Shown piece after piece: positions 12,610-56,215 of a stretch of DNA of 64,000 bases. The notes below the pieces were generated by a model, which worked only from the letters and a program-made list of their open reading frames with translations, ran no database searches and was not told where the DNA came from. Source of the DNA: Azolla caroliniana (lineage: Eukaryota > Plantae > Polypodiophyta); assembly GCA_043228905.1 (NCBI GenBank), contig JBHGNT010000002.1, forward strand, positions 25,854,001 to 25,918,000. Direction: 5' to 3'. The stretch's first letter is position 1, and each line of letters starts with the position of its first letter. The position numbers and the translations under genes are program-made.

Positions 12610-15021
12610 TTATCTGTAAGGAACATAAATTATTTCCTCCTTGAGTTCAACGTCAAATGCCTGTTTTACTTGTTCTTTCACCAGAGCAATCAATTTGAGA
12701 ATATCTGATGCTCGTGAACCTCCAATGTTTGTAAAAAAGTTGGCATGCACTTGTGAAACTTTGGCTCCTCCAATAGTGGCACCCTTCAGTCCCACCTTCT
12801 CAATCAAAGAGCCCGCAGATGCAGCAGGAGGGTTCCTGAACACACAACCAGCTGTTCGTTCTGTGAGAGGCTGATTCTTCTTCCTCCTACATCAAAACCG
12901 AAACCATTATTTAACATATGAAAAAATAGGAACATCATACATCCCTCTCTCATAGTTCATATTTGACCTCTGAGGATGATAATAGAATCTCTATCTCTCC
13001 AAAACTACAGTTTTTGCATATTCTAAAGTACTTGCATGCTGAATATGTGAGCTAAAATATATGAGTAAAACAAACTGAAGTAGTTTTGGACGGATTGTAT
13101 ACTAAGCATTGCTTATAGAACTTTGCGATAGTACCCCACGTGGCTCGAAAGGCACCCAAGTTTGATGATGTGTCGAAAATTTCCGGTGAAAGTTCACATT
13201 CCTTGTCCATTGAAACAATTGCAAATTCATGTGTATTTCTTTACAAAATACAATGATAAAATTACAAAATGAATTACACACTAATAATGAGAGGGAAATG
13301 ATATTTCAACATACAATGAATTCGCAAACAATGGAGATTAAATATTTGAAAGAGAAGTTACTTGCTATATAGAAAATAGCATTGCAATCTAAGATACTTG
13401 GATGCCCAAACTAAAGATCAAAATGATAATCTTAGAAACTGAAAAAGAATAGCTAATCAAAGCATTGTTGAAACGAAACTAGACTTGAAGATATGCAAGG
13501 TAAGCAATGAAAACATAGTGGAGGACGTATATCACTTATTTCTCGCATGCTTAAAATATAATGTAATTCACGAGAAGTATGATAACTTGTTAGATGAGCA
13601 TGATAATTTAATTCTCAGTCTCAAATCTCCACTAAGAAGGGTGAGCACATTGTGCATGCATAATTTTTACATAAGAGATTTTTTTCTAAAGAGTAGTAAT
13701 CCCCTTCTTAGGTGAGAGTAACATACAAGGTGACAAGTTTAGTTGGTCCATAGGTCAAAATTGGCCACCTCATGGATGATAAAATATACATCTGTGTGTG
13801 TGTATGTTCTAGGATAGGAACCCCAACGAAAGCATACCTCTCTAAATAGGATATTTGCATTTTCCGAGATATGGGAGACGGTTTCAACTCAAATGAAGCA
13901 CCAACTATTGTTGCAAACTGCAGCGGTGCCTTTTGAAAGGGTGAACTCCGATAGCTGTACAGAAGTTCGTCCCTCGCTAACACATGTTTGTTTCCACTGG
14001 CGGTGATGACCTCCACAGACTTCAACACATCTGCGGTTTCCTACAACACGAGGACAGCATGCGAAAAGGGCATGGCATTGAAAAATGGGGCATCCGTGTT
14101 ATATGCATTTTCTTGAATTCATGGTGATGATAGGATAGACATCAATTCCCCATTCAGGAATCTGAGAAGCATAACAAAACTAACTCCAGGGCAGCAAAAT
14201 GAATCTGAACAGATGCATCTTCAGAGCTACAAAAGCATGGCATTACATTGATGGCAACAAATGTGAATAAAGGACTCATCATTCCATACATCACAAGATC
14301 TCCAAATGTTGCTAAAAATCTTATAATAACACAGAAGAAGCTAGCCCTAGATTCAAGTATTATACTGGCACACCCATCTATCAATATGCATACCAATGGT
14401 ATCCAGATGCAAGTAGTGGAGTCACCTGCCCATTGGCACCGGCATTCATGTAAACTGCACCTCCAACCGTACCCGGGATGCCCGAAGCAAATTCAAGCCC
14501 AGAGAAGCCATCACGAGAGCACTGCATACCTAAAATGTTGAATGGATACCCACTCCCCACACGATATACACCAGTTTGGGGTGTCTCTAGGAAGGCAATG
14601 CGATTGACGATGATGCAACCATCAAAGCCCCTGTCATCGAACAATAAATTCGAGCCCTTGCCAATCACAAGGAAGCGAATGCCGTGCTCGTGACAATATC
14701 TGCAGGAAAACAGAAGCTGTAGCAGATTAAAAGAATGGACAAAAATGGAAGGATTTGAAAGAGAGGAAAGAGTAGAAAAAAAAGAAGAAAAAACAGAGGA
14801 GGAGGAGGAGGGAACAACCTGATGGCGGAGAGGAGGTGTGATTCATGATGGACTTGGCAGAAGAGCTTGGCGGGGCCACCGATGCCCCAGGTGCAGAGGT
14901 CGCTAAGGAGCTTCCCACGGGAGAAGAGCGGGAGGGGGTCGAGGGCGTGGCCATGGCCATGGCCATGGAGGGGAGTGGGTAAGGGTAATGATATGCAGGA
15001 GGTTATGGGAGCCAAGGCCAT
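12610..15021 (-). CDS. murB: UDP-N-acetylenolpyruvoylglucosamine reductase MurB (plastid peptidoglycan synthesis), 318 aa
   Basis: Exons 15021-14819, 14699-14426, 14040-13838, 12886-12610 (957 nt, GT-AG). Motifs TWGIGGPA, IGKGSNLL, GLEFASGIPGTVGGAVYMNAGA, YRSS, QP..TAGCVFRNP, AGSLIEK.GLKG, HANFF.N, LKEEI. About 30-aa N-terminal extension. Confidence 0.96.
13395..13700 (+). mobile_element. Decayed LINE 3' fragment (C-terminal CCHC) in murB intron 3
   Basis: KICKVSNENIVEDVYHLFLACLKYNVIHEKYDNLL parallels RICRLCHIEIKDEYHFTCKCPTYAEIRAKYQDIL of the LINE at 39815-40651. Confidence 0.6.
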
Positions 15022-15062
15022 CGCTATTCTCTACATACATACATATAAAGGGCTTCGATGAC

Positions 15063-22478: not shown

Positions 22479-25537
<3,059 letters not shown>

Positions 25538-25689
25538 CTCAAATAATATGTTCAAAAAATCTAAATAAATAAAAGAAAATTAGGCAGAGAGAGGAAAATG
25601 GAATCCCTCTCTCTCTCTCTTTCTCTCTGTTTGTCTTCTTTTTTGTCTCTTCCTTCCCTTCTTTCTTCACACTTATCTCAAATGGACTT

Positions 25690-33152: not shown

Positions 33153-33747
33153 CAAGCATTGGTTCCCCACTGGTGTCTCATATCAATGTGTACGAACATG
33201 GATCGTACCTTGGGTTTGAAGGAGGTGGCACATGTGTATGAAGCTAGAGCTTTGTCACATTGTCATGGTTTCTATCTCAAAACAATAAAGAAAAGACACC
33301 CCCTCTTTGTGAAGGAAGCCAACCTTCTTATATAGGCTCAAACCTTAAGCCCTTGTGTGTTTCACACTTGGTTGCATTTTCTACCAAAAAGGGCGAAGTG
33401 ATGAAACACTCTAAAGTTACCCCCACCATAGGATTGAGATAACTCAATCCTCACCCTTCATTCCGTATGAATTGGCTCAAAACTATGGTTAGATTATGCT
33501 CATAACTGACATGCACAATTTCCACTCTTTATCTATAGATAAATGAATTGGAGGGAGGGTACATCAGTTGATAATGCCCTCACATTAAGTTTAAGTGGTA
33601 AATGAGATGTCATATAACCATGATTCAAACTTGTTGGTTGTGATTTTAAATTATTGAAGTGAAAATTTTGAAGCCTTCTCCTACAAACATGACTTTCCAA
33701 ATCCGTTTTTTCACAACCCACGAGGACTCAAAATAATAGCATAATCA

Positions 33748-36700
33748 GAAGAACCGAATGCTATTTTGAAGGACCGCAACATGGTGGGCGAACAGACGAC
33801 AAGGTCAACCAACATTTCTTTGAGTACAAGGCACCCAAGGGTGGTGGTGGACGTATACAAGGGTTGCGCAAACCAAATGGCCCAATAACGGAGGACAAGG
33901 ATGAGACTTTGCATATGGCAACACAATACTATCGAGACCTACTCGCACCTATGCATATGAGGCAAAACATGGAGTTGGCTAATAGGGTGATGACTTGCAT
34001 TCACCCCAAGGTAACCCAAGAGATGGAAGTTGTGCTCGATAACCCCATTTCTTGATTAGAACTATTAGAGGTGATCAGGGAATTGTGGAGAGGAGCATGC
34101 CCGACTTCGATGGTCTCTCACGAGACTTTTTTGAGATTCATTGGGAAAGTGTTATCCCATCGTTGGAAGTCGGGGTTCAGGAGATTTGGACCTCATGAAC
34201 GATGTTGACTAGTCTGGTTGATGGGATGATCTATCTCATCCCCAAAGCGGCAGAGCGAAACCTAGAGTTGCGCTAGTGGCATCCAATCACGATCCTTAAC
34301 ACGATATACAAGATACTCGCAAAAGTCCTAACTCGACAGTTAGCAAGCTTCTTACTGGACATCATACATGAGAATCAAACAAGCTTTATCAAGAGCAGGT
34401 GTATCGTTGATAATGTGTTGCTTCTCTGGGAAGTTATATCATTGGCAGATCGCTCCGTATTGAGCTTGACTATTCTGATCTTAGACTTCGAGAAGGCCTA
34501 CGACAGGGTGTTATGACCCTTTTTCGAAAATGTGATGAGAGCTATGGGCCTACCCCAAAAATGGAGGAATTGCACTTTTGCACTCTATCGGGTTGCTACC
34601 AGTAGCGTGTTGGTAGCTGGTGTTAGGGCCCCCGCCTTCCACTACAATGCTTAGTGAGGCAAGGTTGTCCCCTAGCCCCATCTCTCTATCTATTTGTAAC
34701 CGAGGCTTTCTCCACCTACTTACAAGCACCAAGCAGCGGACTGAGGGGATTGCCCATCCCCAATGTGACTGAAGATCTTTTGTTATCTGAATATGCCGAT
34801 GATACGATTGTTTTCTTGCAGGGCGATGAGGAGAATTTGCAGCAGGCTGAACATCTTGTCGAGGACTTTTGTTAGGGCGTTGGTGCCAAGGCCTCTGGTT
34901 CAACAAACAAAAGAAACCAAGGTGGCAACCCCATGCCGATTTTACATGGGTCCCTGATTGGGACGACGTTCAAGTACTTAGGATTTATGATGGGGAGCGC
35001 AATTGTCCCATGTGCAAGCCAAAATAAGCAGGAAGTTGAACCAATGGAGTAGATCTAAATTATCTTTCACTGGTAGGGTCCTTATTGCGAACCAAGTGAT
35101 GCTCGCCACCATGTGGCACTCAATCTCATGCAGGATTATGGACCCTGCAAGTATGCACGCGATTAAGGATGCCATCAGGGGGTTTATATGGTCAGGTAAG
35201 GACAACCCAATGGCTGCTGCTAGAGTGTCATGACGTTGGTTAACACAACCGCGGGCCAAAGGGGGGCTTGGCCTCATAGACCCCTTAATGCAGAGCCGAG
35301 CATTGCTAGCCAAAATGGTGGTTCGATGCCTCCTGCCAGGGAAGGTGTGCTGGAAGGTACTACTTTGCAACAATTTGCAAGCAAGGACTCCCAAGTATGG
35401 TTGGCCTTGGCCTGACTCCTTGAACTAGTGTTGCGAAGTCCCACCCAAGATGGCTTGTCAACCGAAGGATAGGGTCACGAAATCCATCTTGCGGGTATGG
35501 TGTGTATGACATCATTTGGTCACACACACCCTGGAGACACTAATCGAGTGGACTAGACAACCATTATTTTGGAATTCTCAGGTGCGAACAAGTGACAACA
35601 TGATGTTAGGGCGGCTTAAGGGCCTAGCATGGGGAAAGCTGGCGCAGACAAGGCTCCACTCTGTAGATGATTGGAGATGCATGGTTGCTTTAGGAGGAGC
35701 CCAAGAGGATCCATTACCTCCCCTCAAGGGAGCTATGAAAATGCGGAGATTGATAGTTGCGGCAATTGACAAAGTTCTGAGGGGGGAGGTGAGAGAAGAT
35801 GCATGGTTCGGTCTCTTTGATGAGGCTAGAATGGTTAAGTTGCTGAAGGGCGTGAGCGGATCGGGAAGAGATACATTTTTTGGGGAGAGTCAAGGTAGGG
35901 GCTCTTGGTACCCAATCCGAGTGGTGGCGTAGGCTGATAACATCTGGAAGACAGACCCCGATGTTGCTAAGGTGGAACCCCATTGGAAGTTATGGGTATA
36001 CGGTTGTCGTCCCTTTGTCAAACTAGAATGGAACCCAGGAGATTTCATGTGGAAACAGGACGAAAGACTCCGCCATTTCTTCGAATACAACACTAAATTG
36101 GGTTGGACTTTACAACTGCAGCTAGATGGCCCCCTACGCAATGGTTGGCGAACATTGGGCATCCCTTATGAGGTGCTCATTACTTTTTGGAAGGGTCTTT
36201 GACTTCTACACATGCCTGAAAAGATCAAGCTCTTTTGGTGGCAGATCGATCATAATGTGGTTCCCGTTGGTGAATGCCTAGGTAAACACGACGACCCGTT
36301 AGGTTGCCCACTTTTCTCTTCACCTATTGAGACTCTGAGACATTGTCTGTGGGATTGCCCTCAAGCTCAAAAGGTATGGGATAGAGTGACTCACCTCCTT
36401 GCGACATGTGAAGTGGAAGGAACAACATCGTGGAGCATTGTGGCATGGATTAATCCCTCGATTGATAGGTAGACGGATATCGTCAATGCAGATAGTCGGT
36501 GCTATGTATGCATGAGAGGCTAAATCGTCAAGATCTGTTTTGAGAGAGGCTTGCAGTCCGCATTCCCTAGGTTCCCGGAAATTTGGATGTTGATCGCAGG
36601 CTTCACCTTGTGGTATTTATGGAAAGCGCGTTGCCTAAAGGTCTTCCAAGATCTAGTACAACCCCTGGAGGAAGTGATCATGGGCACATGGTTCACACTT

Positions 36701-37118
36701 ATGAGCTGCCTAAAAAGGCAATTAGACGAGGTTTGCAGCCACTCCAATGACGTGGTCACTGCTCGTTGCGCTTTTGGCAGAAATGGCGGAACACGCCTAT
36801 GGTGACGCAAGGAGGAAGTGGCCCAAGGTGGAACTACCAGCCCCCACGTTGGTTGTTTCCTTCTCACATGCCATCCTCTCTTCGTTGTAGGCATCAGGAG
36901 TCGGCTCGTACTAGTCAACACTGAAGGGCACCGCTTTTAGCTATAGGTATTTACTTACATTAAGTAGTTAGTCCGAAAGGCTATGTAACTAGTCTCATTT
37001 TCTTGAACTTGATTGGAGGGAGATTCCCCGATTTGTGTATAAGCCTCCTTGTATAGTCTCTTTGTAATAATCCTTCCTAACTAATGGGAAAGTAGCTTCA
37101 TTTTGGAACAAAAAAGAG
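33748..37118 (+). mobile_element. 5'-truncated, inactivated L1/Tx1-type LINE (ORF2 RT plus zf-RVT) with target-site duplication
   Basis: RT motifs LIPK, WHPITILNTIYKILAK, LDFEKAYDRV, RQGCPLAPSLY, YADDT, KYLG; GRVLIANQVMLA; zf-RVT KIKLFWWQI..ETLRHCLWDCPQAQKVW. Many stops and frameshifts. A-rich tail at about 37108-37115. AGCATAATCA flanks both ends (33738-33747 and 37119-37128). Confidence 0.93.
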
Positions 37119-39509: not shown

Positions 39510-41055
39510 GAAGTGACTTTACACTAAGCCTAATTTTATTTCCACCCAAGCCTCTTGAAAAGAAGTGGGAGGTCAAAGGGTTTTGGTGTGGGTGTGACTT
39601 GTGGTCCTAATGTAGAGAGTGTCCTAGCCATGGTTTCTAGGCGGTGTAGCTCACGTTCCCTTATTTTCATTATTGCTTTTGCACCACGTTGAGTTGCTTT
39701 GAAACCCGGCACCCGAGGACGTCTGGTTCTTCTTTGGTTTTCTGCCTCATCAAGGGAAAGGCTGAGTGGTGCATGTGTGTCGACAATTGTTGTCTCCCCC
39801 TGTTCTTGAAAAACTTATTTTGTTACATGTTGGTGAACATTAACAACCTTATTGTCAACATTTTGTAACTTATTCTCTCTGTGTTGTTTTAGTTCTAGAA
39901 TGTATTTGCCTAATTTCTTTATATCTAGAGTATCTAATAGTTTGGGGAGGGTGGGAGAGGAACCAAGTATGTCTTGGTATTTTGCCCTTATCTCTGCGTA
40001 GGTTGGACACTTGCATGTAAAGTGATACTCATCCTTTATCTCTATGTGGCATAACCTACATATCCTTTCCTCCCTAAGGACTCCATTAGTATGACCACTC
40101 TCAATCTCAAGTTGGTGAGATGATATTCTAAGTTGTCCAACGGCAACCCTTAGTGCATGTGGTAAGAATACATCTAGATATTTTGGTCGTGTGATAAAAC
40201 TTAACATAGAGAAGTGCATGAAGTGTTCCTTACAATACAACATTTTAGATGGGAGTGGCTCTAGTGGGGTGATCCATTTATACCGAGTGTAAATTTGCCA
40301 TATTTCTTGGCGTATTACTTTATTGCGGTCCTCATAAGAGATTAAAGTGTTATCAATCGTGTGGTTGTACCTAAGGGGAGGTAGGTTATTAATGCCTAGA
40401 CCATTCGCAAGAAGCCAACTCACCATCATGCCATACCATGAGCTAGTATAGCCGGACTTATACAATGATCGAGAGGCCTTAAAAGCTTGATAAGGTATTC
40501 TATTATGTGGTTGGCTATGTCTCCTGTGAATAAGGACTACAAGTTGGAAAAGTGCTTCTACTAACATTGGGGGTAAAGTGAACTCAACCCTAATAATGTC
40601 ATGCGATACTATCGATTTGCTTTGGAGTTGGCGTGATAACATCATCACCAATGGTCTCTCTAATTACGTCCACATGAAAGATGGTAATCCTGGAGCCCAA
40701 ACCACTGATGCATACATGAGGGAGGGGACCACTAATGAGTCAAAGAGCCACCCTTTAGGCCGTGGCTCTTGAAAGTATGCTTGGTGGCATTTTCTCTCTA
40801 GGAGTGCGAGGGATGCATGTCCTTTCATAATTCTATCCTTCATTGCCTATGTCATCGAAAATTTACTTGAGCAAGCACTGAAAGGGACTCCAAGATAAAC
40901 ATATGATCTAACCACCTCAACTGGGTTATGGGAGATAGTTAGGTGACACTTAGCTCTAACTTGGGCTGATGTGTGGAATATAAGGACTTTAGTTTTCCCT
41001 AGATTCACTATCAATCCTCGTTGTGCACAAAAGTCATCTAAGGCATTAAGAGCAA
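39510..41055 (-). mobile_element. 5'-truncated non-LTR retrotransposon, RTEX-like (RT C-terminal part plus C-terminal CCHC)
   Basis: Minus strand LNALDDFCAQRGLIVNLGKTKVLIF..VVRSYVYLGVPF (late RT motifs, about 41050-40880). ORF 39815-40651 contains LRISSHQLEIESG..REERICRLC..DEYHFTCKCPTYAEIRAKY. The 3' boundary is approximate and the clade assignment is tentative. Confidence 0.8.
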
Positions 41056-49545: not shown

Positions 49546-52500
49546 CTAATTGGCACGACAGAGAGCATCTCCAAATCCAGTGCAACTTGATGCAAGTTTA
49601 TCGTTTTGCGATTCGTGCATAAACCTTTGCACGGGTCCAAGCAACATCCTCTTCACTGTGGGCCATGTCGATTGATACTGCAACGTTACACGACACGAGG
49701 GGTTAAGAGTTAGGGCTAGGGTTCTTCAAGTGAGGTGAGAAATGCAAAAAGAAATATGACTTGTCAAAATTAAAGGATTAGAGCCATTAAGCCATAAGAC
49801 ATTAGATACAAGCTATAAAGTAGGTTGGTTAAAACATTCGAGGGTTATTACTTCGAAGGACGAGAATCTGCAATCAGCGGACAAGACATCGGTCGTGATG
49901 TAGTCGGACTCGGAGCCATCGAGGATGACTTCGGCGGCCCGGCTGCGTTTCTTGCTCTTCGCGGCATGCAACTTCTCATACGTGCTTGTGGTCTCTTGAT
50001 AGGTTTGCCCTGTTTCACACACAAACACAACATATGTAGATAAAATAATAGACTTGATAGGTTCGTCCTGTTTCACACATAAACACAAGACACTACATAT
50101 GTAGATAACACAATAGATTTGATATGTTTGTCCTGGTTTTCACACATGGAATTTCAAACCAATGAACCTACTGAATGATTTAAGTGCAGAGGGTTTAGGG
50201 GGGTTTTACAGTTCCAAGGGTTTTTGGGATTAGGATCATATGGGTCTAGGGTTTCTAAGGTTGAGAGGTGTTAGGGTTTGCAGGATTAACGCTCTGAGGT
50301 TTAGGGTTAAAATTTAAACCATCATACCATGGCCTTTGAAATCAAATGTGAGAATGGTAAGATCATATTTACCTAGAAGCCCGTGAACTTTTGGTGAGGC
50401 CCTCAACTGAGAAACTTGGAGATTGATCTGCAAGAGGTGAGTTTATTATTAATTTCTTCCATTCGTTTTTATAAGTATTTAACCTTCACACGATTTGCCT
50501 AGAATAAATGTAGAGATAAGACATGCAATGATGGGTTTGGTGGTAGGGATAGAGAACATGGAATAAAAGAAAAAAAAAAATCTCTTTGCCATACATAGTT
50601 TTTGAAAGATCCTCGCCGTCCAAATGTTGCTTTAATAATCTTGGCCACAACGTCTAATTGGCCTTCTGCATAGATTCTTGCAGACAAGGCCCCCTTTGTT
50701 ATGGTGAGGCCACTTCTAGTGTTGATTGTGTTGTCCACACCTTTCACCTCCACCTACAAAATGATGAATTTTGGCATTCAAATTTCATGTGTATAAGGTA
50801 TTCATAAAACCCCATTGTTTTCTGTATATATGTGTTATGGAATGTTTATTGTATATCCTGTATACTCGGTTATTGTGTGTGTCTCTGTATGTGTACTTAG
50901 GTATGTATGTAGATATATATACAGTATGTGGGTAGGTTCATATACGTGTATGTGTGGATGTGGTTATGTCGGAAGGCATGTATGGATGGATGTATGTAAG
51001 TAGTAATGTAAATATAGAGGTATATATGCATGTAATTTAGGAACCTATGCATGTATTATGCTCACATTGTCTACAATGAGCTTCCATCCCTCCTCATCAT
51101 GGCTTTGAGCTTGTATCAATATCTTTTGTCCTTTATATAGAACCCCCAATGTGGAGATGAACTATCATACAAAACAAACAAAAAAATGTAGCTAATCGTT
51201 AGTTGCCTTGAATAGAAGACTTCTAGTTTTAGCTTGAGAAGAAAAAATATGGCCAAAGATACTTACAGTGGATTTCCTTAGCTTTCCATGGAAGACATGC
51301 ATGTTGATGTGGATATCTTTGTCGGAGATGACACAGTAATTTCGGCCATCTTTTCCGTGGAAATCGAAACGCTCTCCATGTTTGCCGATGAAATGAGGGT
51401 CACCGCTAACACTGCCCCGCGACGGAGGAGGAGGAGGGGCTGAGGGAACATTTTGCACTACTCCTTCTCCATTGGGAGGGGGAGTGCGGGGCAATTTCTT
51501 CTTAGGTGGAGGAGGTGGTGAGGAAGAAGAGAGTGGAGGAGATGGAGATGGAGATGGAGATGGTGGGGGTGGGAATGGTGAAGGTATATTTTGAACAATT
51601 CCTTGACCATTGGGTGGAGGAGCTTGACGGGGTTTCTTGGGGGGTGAAGAAGAAGATCTGTTAGGAGGTGTATTTGTTGAGCTGGGTGCAGGTGATGGAG
51701 AAGGTGGTGTAGGAGAAGGAACGCTTTGCACCACACCCGAGCCGGTAGGAGGGGTACGAGATGGTTTAGTCTTCGGAGGAGGTGGTGAAGCAGATGTGGT
51801 GGGAGTAGGAGCCGGTGGTGAAGATGGGGGGGGACTTTGGGAATAGCTCGGAGGGGGATTAGAGGTGCTCTTTGCAGGAGGGGATTGAGTATTTGATGGA
51901 GGTTGAGAAATTAAAGGTGGTGAACCAGCAGTAGTTGAAGGTTGATTAGCTGGTGTTGCTGCAGCAGTTGGTGGCGGGCAATCGTCTGGTTTCCATGGAC
52001 ATATTGGGGCCGGTGGCAGGACATTCAAACATGTGGCTATACACAACATAACAATGTTTTTCGTCATTCACTGGAAGGGCCCAAAGTTAGCTTTTCTCTC
52101 TAGTGACTTGTTTTGGTTAGTTTTTGATCTATTGTGTGACAAGTAAGAAGAGCTACTCTCTAGTGTTTTTCTCTGTACCATTATCTATCATCTATGTGCT
52201 CTCAAGGAGAGACATTTACTTTTGGGCAGAAAGGATCGCGTTTACCAAGATTGAGAAAAATTACTTACGTTGATTGGATTGTTGTATGCTTTTATCAACC
52301 TGCACAATTGAGCTTTCATGTTAGCTAACAATGTGGAGTAGTGGTAAAATAAGACCCAGAAGAGGGGGAAAAACTTACCGGACAAGTTATGTTGCAAGCG
52401 CCGTTGCATAGGGTATAATTGCCAGATAACTTTTGCATGTAAGGAATAGAATGATTAGGCTAAGTTACATTCTAATCTCAAGCCAAATATGTTCACAAAA

Positions 52501-53609
52501 AAATTTGGATGTTTATAAGCTGAACAACTCACATATGCAGAGAAGTCACACTTAGTAAAGGTTGCCGAAGAGCCTTTGCCAACAGAAACAGAAGGGGTGC
52601 CCTAATACATACAATAAACCGGAAAGGAGGTTTAGTAGAAGAGGCAAAATACACACATTTTTAAACTTGTGAAGAACATTGGGGAATAGCCAAAGTATAC
52701 AGTATAATACCTGTACATTGTTAGTAGAAGCAAAACTACAAGCATAAGCGTTAAGTTGAGATCCTGGTGCCAATGGAGGTGCTGTCACGACATAAATGTT
52801 GCCACCGTCTCCCTGTGTATCAATAACGAACATATGATTTGAGTACACAATGAAACTCCTTAAATACAGATATTGTTCAGTATATGAATGAATGCTTACC
52901 CTAGATGAATGCATCACGCACATGATTAAGTACATAATGAGAGGTCAATGCCGCAAAATAAAAATAAAAAGAACAAGAAATGTATTACAGTTGGGGCTGT
53001 GTTGTTGACGAAAGCTGATGTCCGGACAATGGCAGTGGTGCCAGAGGCAACGGTGTTGAGGAGGATGGCGCCGCCACTGCCTGTGGTTGCAGTGTTGTTA
53101 AGGAAGGTACACGCGGTGATATCGAGTTGCGGCCCTCCGACATAACCACATTCTGTGGATGCATCATCAGCGAAGATGGCACCCCCGGATTGGATTGCCT
53201 CATTGCGTGCGAATTCGTTGTTTGCGAACGTGGCGCAAGTCCTCACTCCACTGCATGTCTCAGCAGGGCCAGAGTTCGGGGTGGGTGGAAGTTTCTCACT
53301 CCCTCCAATGTGCACCGCACCGCCTCTGGTTGCCTGGCCAAAAAATAATCATGCTTTGATTGATTAAGTTTTTGAGAAATCGTAAAAAAAACCAAAGCTC
53401 TACTCAATTCTGGTCTCAAATTTTTTCTTGAATATGGTTGGGATTGATTGAGTGTTACCTTGTTGTTATAGAAGATGGAGTTGCTGATGAATATGGATCC
53501 TCCTGATAACACAGAAACAGCTCCTCCAGCATCCTACATAACAAACAAGGTAAACAAAAATATACAGATACAAAAATAAGCACAATAAATGAAGAGGGAT
53601 AAAGACAAG

Positions 53610-53668
<59 letters not shown>

Positions 53669-56215
53669 AATATAATTTACAGTTGCGATGTTGTTGAAGA
53701 ACTTGACATTGATGGCACGAAGCTTGCCAACGGCTGTAGTAGAGTCGGCACCAAGGCCAGAGACGAGGACAGCTGAACCTTTGGTGCAGAAGCCGCCTGT
53801 GAGCTCAAGGTCTTTGAGCGTGAGAACACCCCCTAGGCCAACCAAGAAGATCCCTGACTGCCCTTTAGCATCGATCAAACATTTGGCGACATCACACACA
53901 CCAGTTATCGTCACTGCCCTGTCAATTGTTGGCAAAAGCCCGAACCCTGCATATGAATCCGACTTCATTTCAGGCTTTCTTTAAAAACTTTCCCTTCTCA
54001 TGTTAATACTGATGACTTATTCTAGTTGTTGATTAAAACTCGCAATGGAACGAATAATGCTCCATGCTAATCAAGATCCATTGAATGCTAATTACTGGCA
54101 CTAATTCATAGCAATAATTATAGTTGATATGAGAGCAGTTTATTAAAAGATTGATTATGCTAATGACCATATAGGCATTAGCAATAAATTAAGATCTATG
54201 ATGATCATTTGGTAGCACAAAAAATGGGATGGTAATTGCGATGAAGTTTTAGTACCTTGAAGATTGATATTCGCAGTTATATAAATCTGGGGTCTTTTGT
54301 TCAGTAATGCTTGGACTAAACACAATGCATTGGAGCACTGGGGGGCTTGTGTAGGATCTAATGGATCCCCTATAGCCGCGAGCCTCCGATGAGCACCTAC
54401 ATTTTCTATTGTCATTATAATTCGCTTGTGCACTTATGATTCATTTGTCAAATTATCATTTAATTTGCTTGTATTTCATCAGGATTTGTTGTCATTTGAT
54501 TAGTTTGTATTTTCACTGTGATTAGTTTGTGATTTTTTATTGTGGTTCATTTGTGAATGTTCTGTGATTAAATTGTACTGTTTGTGATTAACATTTTACT
54601 TTGAGCATGAGTAGTTTGCAAATTTATGATGATTAGCTCGTCACTTTTATCATGATATACCATGATTAACATTGTACTTTGAGCATGAGTAGTTTGCAAA
54701 TTTATGATGATTAACTCGTCACTTTTATCATGATATACCATGATTAACATTGTACTTTGAGCATGAGTAGTTTGCAAATTTATGATGATTAGCTCGTCAC
54801 TTTTATCATGATTATTTTGTAACTTTCATCCTGATTAGTTTGAACTTTTATCATGGTTAATTTGTACTTCTATCATGATTAGATTCTGATATATATTTTC
54901 AGCATAATTGGTGTTAGTGGAAGTCCTTTTAGCATAAGCAATGAGCAATTTTATCTCTTTAATTGGAAAATTAATCTTTACTAGCGAAATTGATTTGTGA
55001 ATAAAGTATTTTATTACCTAGTACTGATTCTTTCCCTGCTACATTAGTATGGCTATCTCTGTGTGATAAAATGAGCTGCATAATAAACGTTATGGGTTGA
55101 TTAATTTCACATTTTTGGATTGCATTATAATGTTTTGATGAAAGCTAATATAGTCACGTTCAGTAATTAAACTATTTTGATTAATTTTGAAATTTTAGGT
55201 TGAAATAAATTTTACGGTTGGTTTCAATTCAAAATCTGGCTTGTAATAATTCACAATGAAGGTTGCATATATAATCATAAACAATGATTCACATATGTAG
55301 ATTCATTTCAAAGTTTAGATTAAATCGAACTATGTACATTAATTTTAGATCTTAGGTAGAACTATAAATTTGGAGTTATTTCAGTTGCTGGTGGAGTTAA
55401 AGTAAAATGATTAAGCTCAAGTTTTTGTGTTTTAGCTGGCATTTTTTTTCAATTGCATCTGCAAAAATTTGTATAGAAATTTTACGTTTTGGGATCGACA
55501 TTAAATGGCTTAAATTTGAGTGCATTTGCAAAAATTTATATAGTAAATTTACGCAATGGTATTGAAATTAAATGGCTTAATTTGCCATCGTTTCAAAGTA
55601 TATGGATTTAACATCAAATCTTTGGGTTGCATTAAGTGCAGGACCGCACAGAAATGGGCATACAATTATGTGGTTTGGTTTATAAAATAAGTTTGAATAG
55701 ATAGATCAACCTGAGGTGATACTGTTTTACTGGAGCCATCGAGTTTGTGTTTATGCGTCAAACACAAACCTGCATGTTTAATTGATACAAAAGACGTTGA
55801 GATTAAAATATATCCGAGCAAAAAAACGAATAGAAATTTCACAAATGCTTGAATGGATTGAAATGATTCAGTGAATCAATGAATTGGCACGATTATTAAG
55901 TATTATGCATCGAATAATAATTCAGTTCAATGGATGAACCAGTTGATAGTACGGAATAATAATGATAATCAAATCATGGTAAGGATTAATAATGATAATA
56001 ATCATAATCAAATGGTCAAATTATATAGTGAATTTGTAATCAAATGAAATCCTGAATGCATCAATAATAAAATAAAATTAGATAGATTGAGTAATAATAG
56101 CATATATTATGAAGGGATTTGGGTGAAACTGAAGGATGCAAATTAGACCTGGTTGGACGAGTGAATTGGTGGCGATAAGCACAAAGAGATGGAGTGCAAG
56201 GATATTTTGGCGCAT
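49546..56215 (-). CDS. Secreted multidomain protein: Pmp-like/pectin-lyase-fold beta-helix, Pro-rich extensin-like stalk and GDPH root-cap/vWD-like domain (about 877 aa)
   Basis: 17 phase-compatible GT-AG exons: 56215-56149, 55769-55711, 55075-55018, 54396-54256, 53946-53681, 53533-53459, 53333-52989, 52812-52711, 52601-52533, 52429-52379, 52299-52269, 52036-51267, 51161-51066, 50753-50595, 50427-50373, 50009-49852, 49677-49546 (2634 nt, no stops). An alternative ATG lies at 56263. Signal-like N-terminus MRQNILALHLFVLIATNSLVQPGLC; repeated FxxN and GGA(V/I); SP3-5 motifs; GDPHFIG..G..FDFHG....YCVISD..HIN.H; VHGLLGQTY; DY.T.D.LS.DC.FS.F; terminal SCTGFGDALC. The first three small exons are the least certain. 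Confidence 0.85.
49995..50147 (-). repeat. Triplicated intron-exon junction (about 58-65-bp unit x3)
   Basis: Minus strand tgtgtgaaa(a)CAG|G(A/G)C(A/G)AAC(A/C)TATCAA, with possible exon starts at 50132, 50067 and 50009. Confidence 0.9.
53612..53666 (+). repeat. (AG)n microsatellite in an intron
   Basis: About 27 AG units. Confidence 0.97.
54580..54812. repeat. 78-bp tandem repeat x3 in an intron
   Basis: tgattaacatt.tactttgagcatgagtagtttgcaaatttatgatgatta.ctcgtcactttttatcatgat is repeated three times. Confidence 0.93.

Follow-up and report, generated by a model that had tools for sequence, protein, structure and literature searches.

We analysed a window of 64,000 nucleotides of the fern Azolla caroliniana (contig JBHGNT010000002.1, positions 25,854,001 to 25,918,000; all coordinates below are those of this whole stretch) and one gene in it, which runs on the minus strand from 56215 to 49546. 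It encodes a protein of 877 amino acids (aa) with a likely signal peptide, a pro-region, a head with FxxN/GGAI repeats, a Cys hinge, a 191-aa Pro/Ser stalk and, at the end, a tail that begins with the motif GDPH. The protein belongs to the root-cap family PF06830, and its tail is predicted to have the fold of VWD domains. The most informative feature is one that an earlier, sequence-only reading of this DNA (the original prediction) missed: in the modelled tail, GDPH coincides with the position at which other proteins are known to cut themselves between Asp and Pro, and there is no tethering Cys. We give an even chance to the explanation that this is a secreted wall or mucilage glycoprotein with a glycan-binding head on a rod glycosylated at hydroxyproline (Hyp), and with a tail that cleaves itself at Asp634-Pro635. 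The architecture alone matters less than the probable self-cleaving mechanism of the VWD/ITIH type that it exposes.

The tail corresponds to the “DPH domain” of PF06830 root-cap proteins, with GDPH at aa 633-636. A single Azolla exon alone matched PF06830 with an E-value of 0.094, and the six orthologues that we scanned all passed the Pfam cut-off (28.2-32.6 bits vs 27). We modelled the tail of the Adiantum orthologue (P0002) with 83 homologues and obtained a predicted local distance difference test (pLDDT) of 87.1 and a predicted template modelling score of 0.81. When this model was compared with 48,161 chains, the top 19 rows were all of VWD fold (Z 15.3-10.8, root-mean-square deviation 2.2-3.6 Å, 125-155 residues aligned) and the next row had a Z of 4.6. 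The VWD-fold matches included VWF, MUC2, MUC5AC, MUC5B, FCGBP, Cypridina luciferase, vitellogenin and RGMB. Foldseek also returned MUC2 (E-value 5e-6) and FCGBP (9e-6). In the Atlas structure search the C-terminal domain of ITIH2 (template modelling score 0.66) came above VWD (0.58); no solved ITIH C-terminal domain was among the rows of the fold-search lists for the tail. At the sequence level, ITI_HC_C was matched by 10 of the 83 homologues and VWD by five, at E-values of at most 0.01. The original prediction of a root-cap-family, VWD-like tail is therefore borne out by the PF06830 match and by the predicted fold.

PF06830 has around 2,000 members and nothing is known of their function (bioRxiv 10.1101/2024.01.29.577848), an ice-binding protein being the only known functional exception at the N-terminus; roles like those of small heat-shock proteins or lectins have been suggested for the family (PMC10796529; bioRxiv 10.1101/2024.01.29.577848). 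Neither VWD nor cleavage appears in the text of these two papers. In the full text searched, from which most subscription papers are missing, no paper connected root-cap proteins with VWD, with ITIH or with Asp-Pro cleavage; the relation between the folds may be recorded already in databases that classify structures. A glycopeptide of a root-cap protein is reported from the Penium secretome (PMC6027541, in excerpt). The published idea of a fold like that of small heat-shock proteins gained no added support from our model, as there was no alpha-crystallin fold among the 50 listed rows of the structure comparison.

The position of the motif in the predicted fold was compared with that in proteins known to be cleaved. 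In the structural alignment, Pro6 of the model falls on residue 4081 of FCGBP D10 and on residue 169 of RGMB, with which those two chains begin, so that the plant Asp-Pro bond lies in register with known autocleavage sites. Asp and Pro were invariant in all 78 homologue rows covering the motif, and His was found in 61 of them. At +14, the Azolla protein has a His, and 58 of 80 rows have either Asn or His. In FCGBP an assisting Gln4094 occupies this position, and both the Asp and the His are required for cleavage (PMC10880436, in excerpt). The 30 aa that precede GDPH contain no Cys in the Azolla protein or in four fern orthologues, and in moss and Riccia there are Cys before GDPH only at -11 to -22.

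The predicted tail thus shares with FCGBP, MUC2, MUC5AC, MUC4 and RGMB the fold (Z up to 15.3), the register of the motif, the His and a polar residue at +14. It differs from these GDPH-cleaved VWD proteins in lacking the Cys that tethers strand 1 and the C8, TIL and E domains, in its low structural identity to them (7-16%), and in being part of a plant protein with a beta-helix head. The propeptide of ITIH heavy chains (PF06668) and the sponge wreath domain also have a C-terminal VWD-like domain, an Asp-Pro and no tethering Cys (PMC11670116, in excerpt). Both release the tail, and the Asp left at the new terminus can bind glycans, according to the available sections of PMC11670116 and PMC8267560. 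Unlike ITIH, the six orthologues have no VIT or VWA, with the beta-helix and the stalk in their place, and they fall under the PF06668 cut-off. By analogy and from the models, the tail may resemble a GDPH-type VWD or an ITIH tail in its action, without this implying membership of PF00094 or PF06668. Among root-cap/DPH proteins of PF06830, the Azolla protein shares the variable N-terminal part, the C-terminal domain of ~250 aa from DP(H/R) to the root-cap segment and, probably, the signal peptide; it adds a predicted beta-helix head of ~310 aa and a long rod, and groups with DPH proteins outside the main DPR clade. We found no glycan transfer by any plant protein in the literature searched.

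If the tail acts in this way, the protein would be secreted and then trimmed at its basic RRL and KR-x-L motifs, which we take to be protease sites, and the Pro/Ser rod would be glycosylated at Hyp. The VWD-fold tail would cut itself at Asp634-Pro635 in the secretory pathway, by an attack of the Asp on its own backbone that would yield an anhydride, as inferred from the animal GDPH proteins. With no tethering disulfide, the head with its rod and the tail would be held together only non-covalently. The anhydride would then be hydrolysed, as it is after cleavage of FCGBP (PMC8267560, in excerpt), or, with lower probability, a wall glycan or protein would capture it, in the manner of ITIH. The predicted beta-helix would bind a glycan from the end of the rod. 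A more ambitious version of this explanation, which could be called “clip-and-link”, sees the PF06830/DPH domain as a relative of the ITIH propeptide that makes its cut at Asp-Pro and joins whatever cargo lies N-terminal to it covalently to glycans of the wall or mucilage; we regard this version as doubtful. A link to the “CLIPPER” adhesins was considered and dropped, since the paper, in the portion available, concerns intramolecular isopeptides.

The tail is also found C-terminally behind LRR, HYR, C-type lectin, RTX, multicopper oxidase (laccase), subtilase, PAN and Ole e 1 domains (52 of the 150 listed tail matches were scanned). That one C-terminal module is reused with such unrelated cargoes is what could be expected of a part that processes or anchors proteins. 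The proteins P0030-P0125 have DPH/VWD tails on diverse heads, including LRR-HYR arrays, and three of those looked up come from Mesostigma. P0041 and P0055 have two tails each. P0118 (908 aa) combines repeats of the bacterial Ig and cadherin-like kinds with a VWD-like stretch behind them, and matched the plant tail profile with an E-value of 5.5e-17.

The head was described in the original prediction as similar to the adhesins of the chlamydial polymorphic membrane proteins (Pmp). The five pairs of FxxN and GG(A/N)(I/V) motifs that it named are all present, which exceeds random expectation: in 10,000 shuffles of the head, one pair appeared in 56 and two pairs in none. We used AlphaFold on the Ceratopteris orthologue (P0023) with seven sequences. 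The full-length model was weak overall (pLDDT 48); its head was better and rich in strands. Residues 56-409 matched right-handed parallel beta-helices with Z values of 19-25, in agreement with the predicted beta-helix. The top match was the alginate lyase 6kfn (Z 25.1, root-mean-square deviation 2.8 Å, 264 residues aligned), and the adhesins Vag8 (24.5), Rhombotarget A (24.4), pertactin (22.4) and PfbA (22.3) scored closely; many of the rows were lyases, hydrolases or tailspikes. The neighbours of the head in the Atlas were Pmp-repeat surface proteins of archaea and bacteria. The alignment of six sequences, down to Closterium, has 67 invariant head residues, mostly Gly, Ala, Cys, Phe, Val, Leu and Asn. 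Only two of them, Asp278 and Tyr360, are charged or aromatic-polar and possibly catalytic or ligand-binding; Asp279 and Lys153 are conserved in the five land-plant sequences. Because of this fold and of the scarcity of conserved charged residues, we read the head as more probably a binding or scaffold domain than an enzyme, with glycan binding as the predicted role.

Several observations weigh against self-cleavage and the associated reading of the head. The homologues were gathered with a profile that begins at GDPH, which favours conservation of the motif. Arg replaces His in 15 of the 78 homologues, hence the family tolerates the loss of a residue that FCGBP needs, and DPR variants make up 19 of the 115 motif-bearing matches (among 150 listed). 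The DPH-domain protein of Ancylonema (AnIBP) gave a spot of ~55 kDa, which is the uncleaved mass, after equilibration with dithiothreitol, the spot not being identified by mass spectrometry (PMC10796529). The GDPH of MUC2 stayed uncleaved in a recombinant host (PMC10880436, in excerpt). The matches to ITI_HC_C and VWD were all under the curated cut-offs (15-24 bits vs 27 for PF06668), and a sequence search with the profile of the 83 homologues recovered no solved structure. Both models come from orthologues (P0023 and P0002) and not from the spliced Azolla protein, and the head resembles enzymes as well as adhesins. The AnIBP spot and the frequent DPR variants would suit an uncleaved dumbbell, in which DPH is a structural turn and the intact protein, with the beta-helix and the VWD sandwich at the two ends of the rod, cross-bridges or oligomerises in the wall or mucilage. 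Oligomerisation through the sandwich has been proposed (PMC10796529), and the tails of the Azolla subfamily keep a conserved C-terminal extension of their own, suggesting a lasting role. However, the invariance of Asp-Pro, its exact register with the cleaved structures and the polar residue at +14 fit catalysis better than a generic turn, and we find the intact linker somewhat unlikely.

Whatever the tail does, the rod could carry, as its head, an enzyme that modifies polysaccharides (a lyase, a hydrolase or an epimerase). The alginate lyase at the top of the structural matches, the many lyases, hydrolases and tailspikes below it, and the conservation of Asp278, Asp279 and Lys153 point in this direction, as does the basic RRL motif that closes the pro-region. 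A basic motif at this place is seen in processed wall enzymes. Yet, the identity to the matched enzymes is 6-18% and their Z values are tied with those of adhesins, the closest relatives by features are Pmp-repeat surface proteins, and no match to the pectin lyase, GH28 or PME families was found in the Pfam scan of the six orthologues. An enzymatic head thus appears improbable to us, and we keep to a binding head with a putatively self-cleaving tail.

The name of “Pmp-like adhesin” is only partly appropriate. Like chlamydial Pmp and other POMP-repeat proteins, the head has the FxxN and GGA(I/V) repeats, here predicted to form a right-handed beta-helix. Such repeats are widespread in archaea and bacteria. 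The definition of Pmp includes a middle domain and a C-terminal autotransporter barrel, whereas the Pfam scan of the six orthologues found neither, and the Azolla protein ends in a predicted VWD-fold tail and is encoded by an intron-rich eukaryotic gene. The stalk was similarly described as an extensin with ~190 aa of Ser/Pro repeats, and these were found: its 191 aa are 36% Pro and 20% Ser. Chimeric extensins are defined by two or more SP3-5 motifs, and they and other rods of hydroxyproline-rich glycoproteins include LRX and the pherophorin-type dumbbells of volvocine algae. The Azolla stalk has three SP3-5 motifs and shares with chimeric extensins the combination of globular domains and rod; the orthologue stalks have from two to 14 SP3+ motifs, and the fern stalk repeats the motif PP-x-G-x-G-x-V. 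In contrast with cross-linking extensins, none of the seven stalks examined has a Tyr cross-link motif (YXY or VYK). The proposal of a mucin-like system also went too far. Gel-forming mucins have tandem VWD-C8-TIL-E assemblies, while here there is a single predicted VWD-fold domain, and the six orthologues gave no match to C8 or TIL. Judging from its sequence, the protein is a member of PF06830; it does not qualify as a Pmp, as a gel-forming mucin or as a cross-linking extensin.

In nine species, which range from the algae Klebsormidium and Closterium through liverworts, a moss and Selaginella to ferns, head and tail are annotated together in one protein. A search with the part of exon 12 that holds GDPH gave proteins already annotated with PF02415 and PF06830, from Adiantum capillus-veneris, A. 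nelumboides and Riccia fluitans. The search with the head (7,987 candidates scored, 476-1,516 aa) retrieved Physcomitrium and then weak, mostly unnamed Pmp-repeat proteins at E-values of at least 1e-12. Cluster look-ups added the full-length Ceratopteris P0023, Riccia sorocarpa, Closterium Yama58-4 and a Selaginella protein with a shorter head. The Klebsormidium nitens protein (P0185) has a signal peptide, the head, a Pro/Thr stalk and a tail 43% identical to that of Azolla. Models with only the tail were found in Diphasiastrum and two Marchantia species. The orthologues are named hypothetical or uncharacterised, with one “Root cap family protein”, and are present in rootless lineages. The architecture itself is therefore already in public databases, as uncharacterised PF02415+PF06830 proteins, and the expectation of an uncharacterised family of seedless plants with algal counterparts proved right. 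No seed-plant member was among the matches listed (150 of 763 tail matches, with names checked for 20, and the 7,987 candidates of the head search), which does not establish absence. We found no published description of the fusion in the full text searched, which leaves out most subscription papers; Table S1 of bioRxiv 10.1101/2024.01.29.577848 could list an orthologue. Some public models look chimeric, namely P0043 (the Closterium orthologue), fused to a condensin II subunit, and P0001 (Adiantum), fused to a piece of DDE transposase. P0163 is a second, truncated copy in Adiantum capillus-veneris, which retains a portion of the head and the beginning of the tail, with hardly any stalk.

A tail tree, built with a quick method after dropping the four of 61 rows that miss the motif, placed the Azolla protein as sister to Adiantum and Ceratopteris (support 98). 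The tails of the fusions formed a group that also contains three algal rows lacking a head (85-94) and lies outside the main DPR clade; on this tree the beta-helix fusions require two label changes. This is an ancient and uncharacterised subfamily of streptophytes. Bacterial contamination or recent transfer is ruled out by the 16 introns, on which the original prediction had already relied, by the position of the tail as sister to ferns and by the algal orthologues.

The gene consists of 17 exons which, joined by coordinate, give the anticipated 877 aa in frame, with one terminal stop. The exons and the motif are as follows:

56149..56215, minus strand: exon 1, with the start codon and a hydrophobic segment resembling a signal peptide (aa 1-23); Ceratopteris P0023 begins in a similar way
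55711..55769, minus strand: exon 2, pro-region (aa 23-42); aligns to the P0023 N-terminus, not in the Adiantum P0001 model
55018..55075, minus strand: exon 3, pro-region (aa 43-62); the interval has two candidates that begin in phase 0 and end in phase 1, of which this is one; weak P0023 match
54256..54396, minus strand: exon 4, RRL motif ending the pro-region and N-cap helix of the predicted beta-helix
53681..53946, minus strand: exon 5, predicted beta-helix head
53459..53533, minus strand: exon 6, predicted beta-helix head
52989..53333, minus strand: exon 7, head with POMP repeats and conserved Asp278-Asp279; TIGR01376 26.4 bits (cut-off 15), Chlam_PMP E-value 6e-4
52711..52812, minus strand: exon 8, predicted beta-helix head
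52533..52601, minus strand: exon 9, end of the predicted beta-helix head
52379..52429, minus strand: exon 10, Cys-rich hinge
52269..52299, minus strand: exon 11, hinge
51267..52036, minus strand: exon 12, last part of the hinge, the Pro/Ser stalk of 191 aa (51977-51405) and first part of the DPH/VWD tail
51393..51404, minus strand: GDPH motif (aa 633-636), where autocleavage between Asp and Pro is predicted; the preceding 30 aa have no Cys
51066..51161, minus strand: exon 13, predicted VWD-fold tail
50595..50753, minus strand: exon 14, predicted VWD-fold tail
50373..50427, minus strand: exon 15, start of the PF06830 segment
49852..50009, minus strand: exon 16, PF06830 segment; alternative acceptors at 50132 and 50067
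49546..49677, minus strand: exon 17, C-terminal extension with basic KR-x-L motif, conserved Cys pair and stop codon

All 16 introns are GT..AG, and the G+C content is 0.50 in exons and 0.31 in introns. The 877-aa model is 56% identical to Adiantum P0001 in the head (388 columns) and 63% in the tail (246 columns). A hydropathy peak at aa 5-20 and the similar N-termini of Ceratopteris P0023 and Klebsormidium P0185 indicate that the N-terminus is likely a signal peptide. A 15-exon model that skips exons 2 and 3 is also in frame and agrees with P0001. We prefer the 17-exon model because the N-terminus of P0023 aligns with exon 2 and the start of exon 3. Exon 3 is the least certain, its acceptor being based on the reading frame and a weak match to P0023. 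Intron 15 has three candidate acceptors: a 65-bp tandem repeat at 49995-50147 provides the acceptor of exon 16 in three copies, of which that at 50132 would add 41 codons in frame and that at 50067 would cause a frameshift. The protein fragments P0083 and P0180 show a duplication resembling this repeat. Other tandem repeats, of 78, 22 and 67 bp, lie within introns 3 and 2 (54585-54882, 55454-55584).

Contigs of run X1, which has the same species label, contain a diverged copy of 52460-54101, ~92-95% alike across exons and introns, that is a paralogue, a homeologue or another accession. No read showed a splice joint, X1 spanning introns at ~90-95% likeness; hence, the joints rest on splice signals and homology. 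Run X2 gave no match, and neither run informs on expression. Using 40 of the 65 listed differences, we counted 28 exonic changes in exons 5-7, of which 18 are synonymous and 10 non-synonymous, with 16 at third positions (p = 0.008). There was no stop, and the indels (3/3) were in introns. The missing splice joint, together with the public orthologue models that are chimeric (P0043, P0001) or split (tail-only P0024, P0027), could suggest an annotation artefact, i.e., two adjacent genes or a pseudogene joined by eye. Against this, the head-then-tail order is common to nine species, the frame is intact with an excess of synonymous changes, and moss records also include short Logan contigs, one of at most 3.6 kb that encodes 791 aa and one of 2.2 kb that encodes 442 aa, which suggests spliced transcripts. 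An artefact is thus very hard to credit. The sequence evidence confirms that this is one real gene with head and tail joined, as originally proposed.

Placing PF06830 in the VWD/ITIH fold, with an invariant Asp-Pro on the cleavage site, would give a large orphan family a testable job, and suggests that plant and algal matrices share a self-processing domain with animal mucus. The Physcomitrium orthologue, XP_024388267, is compact, and knockouts and tags are routine in this moss. If covalent coupling to glycans also took place, proteins could have been anchored independently of peroxidases in the plant matrix since early streptophytes. The cargoes would then include LRRs, lectins, laccases, proteases and an ice-binding domain, and the Azolla gene would count as an ancient member that seed plants seem to lack.

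Elsewhere in the window, exons of a murB-like gene (UDP-N-acetylmuramate dehydrogenase) lie at 13708-15030 on the minus strand (E-value 1e-26; FAD_binding_4), which fits a seed-free plant with plastid peptidoglycan. Probable exons of another gene, at 24587-25579 and 22894-23472 on the minus strand, lie beside a long microsatellite and had no Pfam match at an E-value of 0.01. Open frames at 33693-36936 and 39815-40663, three of which were scanned with no Pfam match at the same threshold, look by eye like decayed pieces of a long interspersed nuclear element (LINE) retrotransposon.

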